A stretch of DNA of 64,000 nt. Source: Candidatus Magasanikbacteria bacterium RIFCSPHIGHO2_01_FULL_33_34 (GTDB lineage: Bacteria > Patescibacteriota > Patescibacteriia > Magasanikbacterales > UBA922). How positions within the stretch are numbered: the first letter of the stretch is position 1; the number at the start of each line of letters is the position of its first letter. Where the stretch lies: contig MFPS01000009.1 in assembly GCA_001782825.1 (NCBI GenBank), forward strand, positions 122,102-186,101, in the 5' to 3' direction. The notes below the pieces were generated by a model. The model ran no database searches, had not been told where the DNA came from, and was given only the letters and a program-made list of their open reading frames with translations. The translations under genes were made by a program, and so were the position numbers. Positions 3,244 through 11,095 of the stretch are shown piece by piece.

Positions 3244-3356
3244 GATAATTATCTTTTTTACGGATTTGGTTGTCACAACAGACAACCACCTCGGAGCCAC
3301 AGCGAGAATCCTGCCTGCCGGCAGGCAGGGAGTAAAAACAAATAATTGAAATTAAT
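3244..3356 (+). repeat. Nested-hairpin repeat element, copy 1 (carries an extra GC-rich perfect palindrome CCTGCCTGCCGGCAGGCAGG)
   Basis: Shares the core ACGGATTTGGTTG(t/c)CACAACAG(a/g)CAACCACCTCGGAGCCACAGCGAGAAT...GAGTAAAAACAAATAATT with copies at 19461, 22513 and 23930, flanked by long inverted repeats. Confidence 0.7.
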
Positions 3357-5908: not shown

Positions 5909-7309
5909 ATGAATTACAAAGTAAAAGATCTTAATTTATCTGATTGGGGAAGAAAAGAAATTTCAATTGCCGAGCACGAAATGCCCGGCCTTATGTCTCT
6001 GCGTGAAAAATACTCCAATGAAAAACCCCTCAAAGATGTAAAAATAATGGGTTCACTTCACATGACTATCCAGACCGCAGTATTGATTGAAACATTGGTA
6101 GAACTGGGTGCAGAAGTACGCTGGGCTAGTTGTAATATATTTTCTACCCAAGATCACGCAGCCGCAGCCATTGCCAAAGTTGGTATACCAGTATTTGCTT
6201 GGAAAGGTGAAAATCTAGAAGAATATTGGTGGTGTACTGAGCGCGCTCTTGATTTTGGTGAAGGAGTTGGTCCTGATATGATAGTAGACGATGGATCTGA
6301 TGCCACTTTACTTGTTCACAAAGGAGTTGAAATTGAAGCCAATCCAACTATTCTTGAAGAGGATTACACTAACAAGGGAGAAGATATGCGAGAATTAATG
6401 AAACTCCTCAAAACAGAATTCAACAAAAATCCAAAACGCTGGACTAATGTATCCAAGAAAATAAAAGGTGTTTCAGAAGAAACCACAACCGGCGTTCACC
6501 GACTCTACCAACTCCACAAAGAAAACAAATTGCTCTTCCCTGCCATCAATGTTAATGACTCTGTTACAAAAAGCAAATTTGATAATGTCTATGGTTGTCG
6601 TCACTCTGTAATTGATGGACTCAACCGCGCCCTAGATGTCATGCTCGGTGGCAAGACTGCAGTTATTTGTGGTTATGGTGATGTTGGCAAAGGCTGTGCC
6701 CAAGCACTCAAAGGACAAGGCTGTCGCGTAATTGTCACAGAGATTGATCCTATCTGCGCCCTTCAAGCAACTATGGAAGGACACGAGGTCACAACCGTTG
6801 AAGACACACTCGGTCGAGCTGATATTTATGTGACAACTACTGGCAACAAAGATATTATCCGAGTTGAACATATGGAAAAAATGAAAGATCAAGCAGTAGT
6901 TTGTAATATTGGCCACTTTGATAATGAAATCCAAATTGAACCATTAAACGCTCGCGCTGATATCAAAAAATTAAATATAAAACCCCAAGTAGACAAATAC
7001 ACTTTCCCCTCAGGCAATGAAATTTTCATGCTAGCAGAAGGAAGACTGATGAATCTAGGTTGTGCCACCGGCCACCCAAGTTTTGTAATGAGCAATTCCT
7101 TTACCAATCAAGTCCTAGCCCAACTAGAATTATGGAAAAACAATTATGAAATTGGCGTCCACACATTACCAAAAAAACTAGACGAAGAAGTCGCTCGATT
7201 ACACCTCGCAAAGATTGGAGTCAAACTAACCAAGCTTAACCAAGAGCAAGCTGATTATCTAGGTATAAAAATTGAAGGTCCATACAAACCAGATCATTAC
7301 CGATACTAA
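5909..7309 (+). CDS. ahcY: Adenosylhomocysteinase (S-adenosyl-L-homocysteine hydrolase)
   Basis: 466 aa. N-terminus [27 protein letters not shown] and an NAD-binding [10 protein letters not shown] motif. Full-length SAHH architecture. Confidence 0.95.
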
Positions 7310-7315
7310 ATCAAA

Positions 7316-7345
7316 AGACCGTCCATACAAGACGGTTTTTTGATT
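7316..7345 (+). terminator. Rho-independent terminator after ahcY
   Basis: AAAAGACCGTCCATACAAGACGGTTTTTTGA: GC stem GACCGTC/GACGGT followed by a T-run. Confidence 0.7.
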
Positions 7346-7439
7346 TATATAATTAAATTTAATTATATTACTATTGACAAAAATATTATTTTGTGATTAT
7401 ATTGATTTACTCTTTAACCGAAATTTCCTCGGCAGAGCA

Positions 7440-7745
7440 AAGGGGTTTAAAATGCCAAACATCAGAACCGTTGAAGTTCACATCAAAAACGAAGTGATCG
7501 ATACAATACGAGCAATACAACAAAGAACAATGCTAGTTGGCATAGATTCCGACATCCTCCGCCAGGGGGCATATCTCCTGCTGGAGGTGTTGCAAAAAAG
7601 CCAAAACGGAAACTCGGTTTCCGTTTCGATGGATCAATACGGCTCCTTCTCAGTGGAGCCCATTCCAAAACCCTAACCACACCCCCGACCACAGACCGCC
7701 TCGGCATCTGTACTGGTCGGGGTCAAACAAAAGCAACTCATAATG
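7440..7745. other. GC-rich, hairpin-dense island: candidate structured ncRNA (an alternative small ORF 7452-7676 is possible)
   Basis: GC content far above the local background. At least four strong stems: CCTCCGCCAGG..CCTGCTGGAGG, AACGGAAAC-TCG-GTTTCCGTT (9 bp perfect), GGCTCC..GGAGCC, and CCGACCA..TGGTCGG. Both strands lack stop codons, as expected for a GC island in an AT-rich genome. Confidence 0.3.
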
Positions 7746-7767
7746 GGTTGTTTTTGTTTTATTTATT

Positions 7768-8370
7768 TTGAATAATCATCTTGAAAAATTACTCCAAATA
7801 TGCTATGCTCTAGATATGAAAAAAGCTAAATTTGGAAAATTAAAACCTAAATACAAAGGAAAAATATTCTCAATCTCACAAAGAGAAATAACTTTTCCTG
7901 ATGGAGTAACCGAAACTTATGAATACTGCAAACGCGCACCAAGTGTCAGTGTTTTGGCTTTTAATGAAAAAAATGAAATCTTGATGATAAAAGAGCGTCG
8001 ACATGGTTACCATAAAAATATATGGTTTTTGCCTGGTGGCCGAGCTGATCAACCAAAAGATACTCCCCGCACAGCTGCTCTACGAGAACTAGAGGAAGAG
8101 GCCGGTTACAAAGCCAAACAAATAAAAATGATCCACAAAAAATCTCCTAGTAATACTTTGTTATGGGATATATACATTTTTTATGCCACCGACCTAAAAT
8201 TTGTGGGGAATCACCCCGAACGAGGTGAACATATTGAGAGTACTCAATTTATCCCATTTAAAAAGGCCGTAAAAATGGCGCTGGATGGTACGATTGAAAA
8301 TGAATTTATCTCTTACAATATAATCCGTTTTGACCAAATGCTCAAAAATAAAAAATTTAAAATAAAATAA
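7768..8370 (+). CDS. NUDIX hydrolase (ADP-ribose pyrophosphatase-like)
   Basis: Nudix box GGRADQPKDTPRTAALRELEEEAGY (GX5EX7REUXEEXGU). An alternative start is at 7816 (MKKAKF). Confidence 0.85.
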   Translation: MNNHLEKLLQICYALDMKKAKFGKLKPKYKGKIFSISQREITFPDGVTETYEYCKRAPSVSVLAFNEKNEILMIKERRHGYHKNIWFLPGGRADQPKDTPRTAALRELEEEAGYKAKQIKMIHKKSPSNTLLWDIYIFYATDLKFVGNHPERGEHIESTQFIPFKKAVKMALDGTIENEFISYNIIRFDQMLKNKKFKIK

Positions 8371-9142: not shown

Positions 9143-9355
9143 ATGAATGGAGAAAAATTTGAAGGTCTAAGTAACTTATCCGAAGAAGAACTAAACAACG
9201 CAATTAACGCACCAATAGCAGAAGCTGGCGCAGAACATGAAAATCCAGATAAATTAGAAGGCTTAACAGATGAAGATGTTGGTGCCGGTCTAAGCGATTT
9301 AGAAATGGATAGACAACAAGATGCAAATGAAAGAGAAGATGAAGAAACTAGTTAG
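9143..9355 (+). CDS. Small acidic hypothetical protein
   Basis: 70 aa, Glu/Asp-rich. Followed by a strong terminator. Confidence 0.45.
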   Translation: MNGEKFEGLSNLSEEELNNAINAPIAEAGAEHENPDKLEGLTDEDVGAGLSDLEMDRQQDANEREDEETS

Positions 9356-10575: not shown

Positions 10576-10624
10576 GTTATTTCAAAAAACCGTAAAGCGC
10601 TTTCCGTTTTTTTAAAATAACTAT

Positions 10625-10738
10625 GACCTTAGAATAACACCTACTATACCCGCTACTGAAAGAACGTACATCACAGCAGCAAAGCATAAGAAGCCTACCA
10701 AAATTCCTATACCTAGAACAGAACGACTCTTGTTCATA
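10625..10738 (-). CDS. Small hydrophobic peptide (37 aa; below the ORF-track length cutoff)
   Basis: MNKSRSVLGIGILVGFLCFAAVMYVLSVAGIVGVILRS: a single TM helix, with its own downstream terminator. No SD, but SD sites are generally absent here. Confidence 0.3.
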
Positions 10739-10882: not shown

Positions 10883-11095
10883 TTATAAAAAATAAGTATT
10901 TTTAATTGTCCATGAAAAAGATGCCAATTGAACCAAAATAGCCTGCTCTTGATTAATACCCTGAGCTACAACCAAATACTTTCTACGCATTGTCTTATCA
11001 TACCATTTGATAAATTTATCTTCATTATCAAATTTTGATAAAGTTATATTACCCTTACCTGAACCAGTTACACACAAAAGAATAACATTGTGCAT
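10883..11095 (-). CDS. Hypothetical protein
   Basis: 70 aa. Downstream hairpin terminator GCCCGCTAGAATAGATTATTCTTTAGCGGGC plus T-run on the coding strand. Confidence 0.5.
   Translation of the reverse strand: MHNVILLCVTGSGKGNITLSKFDNEDKFIKWYDKTMRRKYLVVAQGINQEQAILVQLASFSWTIKNTYFL

Follow-up and report, generated by a model that had tools for sequence, protein, structure and literature searches.

The DNA analysed here (the window) is a stretch of 64,000 nucleotides (nt) from contig MFPS01000009.1 of Candidatus Magasanikbacteria bacterium RIFCSPHIGHO2_01_FULL_33_34. Between ahcY, which codes for S-adenosylhomocysteine hydrolase (5909-7309; Pfam AdoHcyase, E=4.5e-149), and a NUDIX hydrolase gene (start ATG 7816; Pfam, E=4.7e-17) lies a GC-rich stretch (7440-7745), which the original prediction, made from the letters alone, had singled out as a non-coding RNA (ncRNA) candidate or an atypical small open reading frame (ORF). 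We found that this GC-rich island is the body of a cassette of ~425 nt (7345-7775) that contains, in this order, a promoter, a 5′ hairpin, a Shine-Dalgarno (SD) sequence, a 74-codon ATG-TAA frame, a ~15-bp hairpin and an intrinsic terminator. With moderate confidence, we take the cassette to be an orphan small-protein gene that is lineage-specific and transcribed on its own, and whose mRNA is strongly structured and possibly locks itself. The features of the cassette and of its two boundaries are as follows:

7308-7344, plus strand: intrinsic terminator of ahcY, stem ACCGTC..GACGGT followed by a T-run; left boundary, outside the cassette
7347-7368, no strand assigned: perfect loopless 22-bp AT palindrome, ATATAATTAAATTTAATTATAT, 5 bp upstream of the -35 hexamer
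7374-7403, plus strand: σ70-type promoter, TTGACA-18-TATATT, with 11 of 12 matches to the consensus
7410-7437, plus strand: 5′-terminal stem-loop of the predicted transcript, CUCU/AGAG and CCGA/UCGG (pair probabilities 0.66 and 0.97)
7440-7446, plus strand: SD sequence AAGGGGU, 5-6 nt upstream of ATG 7452
7442-7454, plus strand: 5′ arm of a predicted long-range helix, GGGGUUU (with AAUG), covering the SD and the start codon
7452-7676, plus strand: 74-codon ORF, MPNIRTVEVHIKNEVIDTIRAIQQRTMLVGIDSDILRQGAYLLLEVLQKSQNGNSVSVSMDQYGSFSVEPIPKP, with ATG start and TAA stop
7550-7592, plus strand: three-tier hairpin inside the ORF, CGACA/UGUUG, CCUCCG/UGGAGG and CAGGGG/CUCCUG (pair probabilities 0.97-0.99)
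7604-7626, plus strand: perfect 10-bp hairpin inside the ORF, AAACGGAAAC-TCG-GTTTCCGTTT, encoding NGNSVSV
7641-7660, plus strand: hairpin inside the ORF, GGCTCC-N8-GGAGCC (pair probability 1.00)
7661-7674, plus strand: 3′ arm of the predicted long-range helix, CAUU..AAACCCU, reaching from the last codons into the stop codon
7683-7722, plus strand: ~15-bp hairpin of the 3′ untranslated region (3′-UTR), CCCCGACCA/TGGTCGGGG extended by ACAGA/TCTGT
7725-7769, plus strand: intrinsic terminator of the cassette, ~16-17-bp stem (7725-7759) with a T-rich tail (probability 0.96)
7781-7809, plus strand: NUDIX promoter, CTTGAAAAA...TATGCT; right boundary, outside the cassette

The stretch 7440-7745 has a GC content of 47.7%, against 32.6% for the window, and is the top GC peak of the 64 kb at the 200-nt and at the 300-nt scale alike; the GC-rich island in an AT-rich background was thus correctly perceived from the letters. 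Its best 200-nt window has a GC content of 0.54, and just 0.2-0.4% of windows reach the value of the stretch. The runner-up GC peaks fall within ahcY itself and the N-terminal part of gyrA, both of them strongly conserved coding segments. The neighbours of the cassette are housekeeping genes (ahcY, NUDIX and an rluB-like gene), and no recognisable prophage surrounds it. The nearest relatives of ahcY are found in Candidatus Magasanikbacteria (79% and 77% identity) and in metagenome-assembled genomes of Moranbacteria.

The ATG at 7452 opens a frame of 74 codons, where 75 had been counted before, which ends ~50 nt before the terminator. The AAGGGGU sequence in front of it had been described as a weak SD; in fact it is a strong one: its anti-SD duplex is calculated at -7.5 kcal/mol, which only 0.2% of random positions and 2% of host genes attain. 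The host genes (here and below, the 53 long ORFs of the window) mostly lack an SD: the regions 5′ of their start codons are A/T-rich, and their median anti-SD duplex, +0.4 kcal/mol, is the same as that of random positions. Stop-free frames are present on both strands, at 7374-7676 (plus) and 7483-7707 (minus), as had been reported. An ATG-initiated frame with 74 codons or more occurred on the plus strand in 1.8% of shuffles.

The composition of the frame was then compared with that of the host genes. The GC content at codon positions 1, 2 and 3 is 0.53, 0.32 and 0.52 in the ORF versus 0.43, 0.33 and 0.23 in the host. The bases at position 2 (A.32, C.20, G.12, T.35) are close to those of the host (.34,.19,.14 and.33), and position 1 is purine-rich and T-poor, as in the host. 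The 3-base periodicity of the ORF is significant relative to dinucleotide-preserving shuffles (4×3 chi-square of 18.9, P=0.0023). Scored with host amino-acid frequencies, the product has a log-likelihood of -4.18 per residue, which corresponds to the 30th percentile of host 74-residue windows, whereas stop-free shuffled frames average -4.34 per residue (P=0.018 for the ORF against these); the antisense ORF, at -4.35 per residue, is null-like. The small ORF, which the original prediction had offered as the alternative to an RNA gene, has therefore gained the more specific support, namely periodicity, composition, a well-spaced SD and a frame set between promoter and terminator.

Automated annotation treats the frame inconsistently. 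The JGI pipeline called a 100-aa version of the ORF, for which it chose a TTG start that is actually the -35 hexamer. On the ENA contigs L083 and L084, whose DNA is identical to that of contig L001, no ORF was called. Genes that bear an SD are few in the window, and a second small ORF is found among them: a 70-aa orphan without Pfam match (10883-11095, minus strand), which adjoins a tRNA-Leu gene, has a strong SD (GGAGGTGA), a promoter-like site and a terminator of its own, and shows a host-like AT-rich composition.

Several results weigh against a protein-coding gene. The intrinsic signals of coding (a start codon with a ribosome-binding site, periodicity and a protein-like composition) are present, but host-like codon usage is not: in the codon-usage comparison proposed at the outset the ORF scored -0.05, below all host 74-codon windows (minimum 0.08, mean 0.32). 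Its overall GC content at third codon positions (GC3) of 0.52 exceeds that of the highest host 74-codon window (0.45), and a perfect 10-bp hairpin is unusual within a coding frame. No credible homologue of the product was found in a word-indexed search of 5.8 billion clustered proteins or in an exhaustive HMMER search of 1.84 billion representatives. In Pfam, the best match was Npun_R1517 (PF18068; E=0.03), whose 14.7 bits are below the 27-bit gathering cut-off, and NCBIfam, PHROGs and PADLOC contained no family for the protein. The known copies of the cassette show zero variation among them. Finally, structure prediction of the sense and antisense products by AlphaFold2 (AF2) gave a gap that is only moderate, so that this test barely separates coding from non-coding sequences.

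Two matches of the HMMER search were rejected. P0002 (E=5e-16, 16 repeats) and P0003 (4e-7, 4 repeats) are repeat-inflated, in that weak per-repeat scores were summed. P0002 resembles an out-of-frame translation, and P0003 likewise matches seven unrelated Pfam families, none of them through a stretch that passes alone. Whole-sequence E-values on tandem-repeat targets thus call for caution. Nothing credible was found among Protein Data Bank (PDB) sequences for the 74-aa product, and the minus-strand ORF had no protein homologues.

The 74-aa product is acidic (isoelectric point, pI, of 5.6) and not hydrophobic (grand average of hydropathy, GRAVY, of -0.13). Its tryptic peptides include TVEVHIK, NEVIDTIR, TMLVGIDSDILR and QGAYLLLEVLQK. 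The best single-sequence AF2 model has a predicted local distance difference test (pLDDT) score of 73 and a predicted template modelling (pTM) score of 0.51, with helices at residues 13-24 and 33-50 and a β-hairpin at 55-71; the other four models reached a pLDDT of 52-58, and the best model of the antisense ORF a pLDDT of 62 and a pTM of 0.34. Both predicted helices are amphipathic, and no membrane-like helix was predicted. Fold searches returned no match. By eye, the protein is reminiscent of the ribbon-helix-helix (RHH) proteins of the CopG/Arc/MetJ type: an alternating hydrophobic N-terminal strand (RTVEVHI) precedes two helices separated by a G-x-D/S turn, the product is small and acidic, and a palindrome is located beside its own promoter. 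However, no RHH model of Pfam matched at E≤10, the fold searches gave no support, the loop predicted between the helices exceeds the usual length and no partner toxin gene is present. The sequence therefore suggests an RHH-type autoregulator or an orphan antitoxin as a lead, no more than that.

The cassette promoter is one of 12 sites with at least 11 of 12 promoter matches in the 64 kb, where 4.5 were expected; among the remainder, several precede tRNA genes or fall into intergenic gaps. From its position, transcription is predicted to start near 7410, and a transcript of ~355 nt (7410-7765) would result. The palindrome ATATAATTAAATTTAATTATAT has no second copy in the window, with 0.02 matches expected at up to 3 mismatches, and it can be regarded as a candidate operator or UP-like element. 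Across the window, eight palindromes with arms of at least 11 bp were found versus 0.1 expected. Elsewhere in the window we observed an operator-like loopless 22-bp palindrome, AAAAGTGATAATTATCACTTTT, at a gene start (1839-1860), and a 20-bp GC palindrome, CCTGCCTGCCGGCAGGCAGG, in an intergenic gap (3310-3329). A transcription attenuator or leader of the NUDIX gene was considered and ruled out, since NUDIX has its own conserved promoter downstream of the cassette terminator; no alternative anti-terminator pairing for NUDIX was seen.

The plus strand folds far better than dinucleotide shuffles, with z-scores of -7.9 for 7405-7765, -5.6 for 7440-7680 and -4.3 for the ORF alone. The corresponding values of the minus strand (-4.7, -3.7 and -2.6) are weaker. 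By folding, 7440-7679 ranks ~16th among 530 windows of 240 nt, and the windows that fold better, where they could be placed, are mostly tRNAs or terminators. When the codons of the ORF were permuted synonymously, with protein and codon counts fixed, the mean energy was -58.3±4.4 kcal/mol versus -75.8 kcal/mol for the native ORF (z=-4.0), and 0 of 300 permutations were as stable as the native sequence. The structure thus exceeds what would be a by-product of composition or of the protein. The 3′-UTR hairpin alone has a z-score of -3.6.

All the hairpins named in the original prediction, including CCGACCA/TGGTCGG, are present; the perfect hairpin described there as 9 bp is found at 7604-7626, with arms of 10 bp. 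On the minus strand this hairpin is followed by a T-run, which makes a terminator-like site (7629→7601). In the three-tier hairpin, the CCTCCG..CAGGGG/CTCCTG..TGGAGG tiers span 7556-7587, and the arms of the 3′-UTR hairpin read CCCCGACC+ACAGA.../...TCTGT+GGTCGGGG. The central prediction is the long-range helix GGGGUUU/AAACCCU between 7442-7448 and 7668-7674, which has a pair probability of 0.88 in a fold computed from a single sequence and is present in the centroid structure too. Its extension, AAUG with CAUU (7451-7454 and 7661-7664), has a pair probability of 0.46, and the four Gs of the SD are unpaired with a probability of at most 0.07 in the predicted transcript fold. This helix encloses three local hairpins and a second long-range helix (7468-7475 with 7625-7632), and leaves the terminator and the hairpins of both transcript ends (5′ and 3′) outside. 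A complement of 6-7 nt between SD and ORF end can, in a fold predicted from one sequence, originate by chance; a 6-mer complement is expected in ~8% of RNAs of 330 nt, by our own arithmetic.

A comparison with the 4227 models of Rfam 15 at gathering thresholds recovered 4 tRNAs and nothing else in the whole window, and a permissive scan of 7250-7850 (E≤10) gave just sub-threshold matches on the two terminators. ARAGORN detected no tmRNA. These scans agree with the failure to recognise RNase P, tmRNA, signal recognition particle (SRP) or 6S RNA motifs by eye. Such a housekeeping RNA is ruled out, because no model matches and the element is missing at the syntenic site of a sister species (see below). 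Hence, of the structured RNA gene first envisaged, the significant folding stands and the membership of an Rfam family does not.

The requirements of the protein and of the RNA fold can be told apart within the ORF. GC3 rises from 0.37 in codons 1-30 to 0.64 in codons 31-74, which form the hairpin-rich part. At paired sites the GC content of codon positions 1, 2 and 3 is 0.70, 0.33 and 0.70, whereas at unpaired sites it is 0.35, 0.31 and 0.27; the GC3 of unpaired sites is thus near the host value. The enrichment of GC in predicted stems is built in by the prediction itself, so shuffles served as the baseline: the enrichment by codon position is 0.40, 0.06 and 0.45 in the ORF and ~0.21 at each position in shuffles. 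The exemption of position 2 is significant (P=0.01). The stems are made from the codon positions that are cheapest for the protein, a pattern that overlapping coding and structure predict and a pure ncRNA does not. Since synonymous sites outside the stems have a host-like GC content, the stems account for the GC island better than a foreign codon bias does, and the idea of a horizontally acquired GC-rich segment, also raised in the original prediction, is weakened.

The cassette is known in one species only, as judged by a word-indexed protein search with the ORF in its 100-aa version. It recurs with 100% identity in four other contigs, obtained from different samples (L001, L002, L083 and L084), and the differences between these contigs and the window amount to 0-8 sites over 2-12 kb. 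In a count made over 5-6.5 kb, contigs of the same species departed from the window at 2-8 sites, a number too small to tell much, and none of these was inside the element. All contigs that bear the 74/100-aa protein share the same gene context. In a sister species (L085 and L086; NUDIX 85% identical) the gene order is the same and the cassette is absent. There, the ahcY-NUDIX gap of 90 nt contains a terminator, equivalent to that of ahcY and at the same place, and the NUDIX promoter, and nothing more. All copies of the element that were found are identical, and the collections searched yielded no diverged homologue. The absence at this site also implies that the element is not a housekeeping RNA at the locus. 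The cassette is a species-level presence/absence difference in a variable slot.

The NUDIX promoter, CTTGAAAAA...TATGCT, is kept in all relatives of a six-species alignment. In six further relatives the slot 5′ of it is empty, or occupied by a histidine-phosphatase gene or by an unrelated mini-cassette coding for a 26-aa Lys-rich peptide; the slot seems to gather small genes. The mini-cassette, present at L169:2716-3000 and L170:2740-3000 (NUDIX 73-74% identical), is self-contained and different from the one under study, and consists of a promoter-like site, the 26-aa ORF (in L169, MYKKKKQAQKKRAKKGGKKISSLRYR) and a terminator (ATAGCCGG...CCGGCTAT); the two copies are similar to each other over most of their length. 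At the boundaries of our cassette no integrase genes, terminal repeats or target duplication were found. A self-BLAST revealed no second copy of the element in the 64-kb window, the part of the genome available, and on this basis it was not taken for the template or variable repeat of a diversity-generating retroelement (DGR), a miniature inverted-repeat transposable element (MITE) or a repetitive extragenic palindromic (REP) sequence. BLAST against phages and plasmids gave merely short AT-rich chance matches. Viral contigs, queried with the protein and with two hairpin patterns, contained nothing related, nor did metagenome contigs queried with protein patterns; with the hairpin pattern, metagenome contigs gave 46 matches, which share only the hairpin with the element. 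A literature search found nothing relevant to the cassette.

The feature is real and statistically unusual, but it belongs to no known RNA family and is not conserved. A stand-alone structured small RNA (sRNA) of ~355 nt (7410-7765), a regulator or protein-binding scaffold in which the ORF is incidental, is a possible alternative, which we regard as distinctly less probable than a small-protein gene. The GGGGUUU/AAACCCU pairing would then close a multi-branched fold, with the 3′ hairpin and the terminator downstream of it. Screens of AT-rich genomes by GC content and intergenic position have yielded GC-rich structured ncRNAs such as raiA, OLE, ROOL and HEARO. Like these, the cassette is a long GC-rich intergenic region of an AT-rich genome, with a strong folding z and flanked by promoter and terminator; it occupies the GC-richest large intergenic gap of the window, bar the one with a tRNA gene, and promoters of equal quality drive tRNAs in this window. 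Folding z-scores of -4 to -8, helices of high probability, a native fold more stable than every synonymous permutation, the concentration of the excess GC in stems, the lack of a protein homologue in the searches made and the fact that one gene-calling pipeline left the ORF uncalled are all as an sRNA would have it. Unlike those ncRNAs, however, the cassette is confined to a single species, matches no Rfam model even at E≤10, and possesses an SD and an unbroken 74-codon frame with codon periodicity. There is no reason for an ncRNA to show a periodicity with P=0.002 together with a host-like position 2 and amino-acid composition. The stems avoid GC at codon position 2 (P=0.01), and a strong SD is located exactly 5-6 nt before the ATG of a frame that closes ~50 nt short of the terminator. 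Dual-function sRNAs (RNAIII/hld, SgrS/SgrT and SR1/SR1P) are likewise short, highly structured transcripts with a small ORF, but in the cassette the ORF occupies most of the transcript.

The variable slot and the composition of the ORF also bring to mind recently inserted foreign DNA, a passive unit of promoter, ORF and terminator resembling a phage moron, whose GC content would reflect the donor. Morons and other ORFan cassettes have, as here, their own σ70 promoter and factor-independent terminator, are set between genes that are adjacent in a sister genome, deviate in base composition and lack homologues. The presence/absence polymorphism between sister species, the GC3 of 0.52 beyond the host maximum, the SD in a genome that rarely uses one and the complete identity of the copies across samples fit such an origin. 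Against it, the cassette is in no recognisable prophage and no donor-like sequence was found in phages, plasmids, viral or metagenome contigs; its promoter region is AT-rich and host-like, its boundaries are without the marks of integration listed above, and at least one small gene of host composition also has a strong SD. Moreover, GC3 is 0.27 at unpaired and 0.70 at paired sites, so the anomaly follows the RNA structure and is not a uniform codon bias. We consider a passive foreign insert improbable. The SD-sequestering helix also recalls type I toxin-antitoxin systems, in which a locked mRNA for a small toxic protein would be countered by an antisense RNA, here one ending at 7629→7601. As in hok/Sok (fbi-tac) and Helicobacter aapA1/IsoA1, the 5′ ribosome-binding region is predicted to pair with the 3′ coding end in a hairpin-rich mRNA with a small ORF and a strong promoter; the helix has a predicted probability of 0.88, a terminator-like hairpin with T-run is present on the minus strand inside the ORF, and the cassette is single-copy and lineage-specific. 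But the product of 74 aa, with its pI of 5.6 and GRAVY of -0.13, is not a short hydrophobic peptide and has no membrane-like helix in AF2, no convincing minus-strand promoter-like site was detected between 7630 and 7830, and the pairing, predicted from one sequence, is a 6-7-nt complement that could be chance. Since the product is acidic and non-hydrophobic and no antisense promoter was detectable, we do not class the cassette as a type I system, and judge this explanation very unlikely.

We return to the orphan small-protein gene with a structured mRNA. Transcription would proceed from the near-consensus promoter, with a start at ~7410, and the hairpins at both ends would protect the ~355-nt mRNA. 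In the full-length mRNA the SD and start region (7442-7454) may pair with the last codons and the stop (7661-7674) and close the message to translation; such an SD-masking helix would make the expression of the small protein restrained or conditional. The product would have a strand-like N-terminus, two amphipathic helices and a short C-terminal β-hairpin, as modelled, and an acidic protein with such a predicted fold is compatible with a small dimeric regulator or an antitoxin-like protein. More speculatively, as homology lends no support here, its binding site might be the 22-bp palindrome that closely precedes the -35 hexamer of its gene. A bolder proposal is a species-restricted riboregulatory module in a bacterium of the candidate phyla radiation (CPR), be it a dual-function RNA or a toxin-like mRNA that locks itself by pairing the ORF end with its ribosome-binding site. 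Coding and stems would be co-selected: GC at codon positions 1 and 3 would build the helices, and position 2 would preserve the protein. We hold this proposal to be doubtful.

As an ORFan or moron-like small gene cassette, the element belongs to a kind already known, and its wider significance is limited. If the favoured interpretation is true, it offers a clean case of a streamlined CPR genome that gained or lost a gene very recently: a whole mini-gene, from promoter to terminator, sits in a slot whose small cassettes vary between relatives. The element would, in addition, be a compact instance of protein-coding and RNA-structure constraints that are separable in one sequence, because the stems use codon positions 1 and 3. 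For GC-island screens for ncRNAs in AT-rich genomes it is a caution, in that a GC peak with a strong folding z can be a structured small-protein mRNA.

Two further small ORFs were observed in the window. A small acidic ORF (52-145 aa, no Pfam match) is located at 9143-9355 and at the equivalent spot in L085, L087 and L168-L171; in every relative examined it sits between a pseudouridine synthase gene (an unannotated gene in L087) and an AI-2E transporter gene, and it is a fast-evolving small gene that has retained its position. On the minus strand, at ~10622-10736, a 38-aa strongly hydrophobic ORF, MNKSRSVLGIGILVGFLCFAAVMYVLSVAGIVGVILRS, has a TGgTATAAT-type promoter and a terminator; judged by its sequence, it may encode a small membrane peptide or a product akin to a type I toxin.

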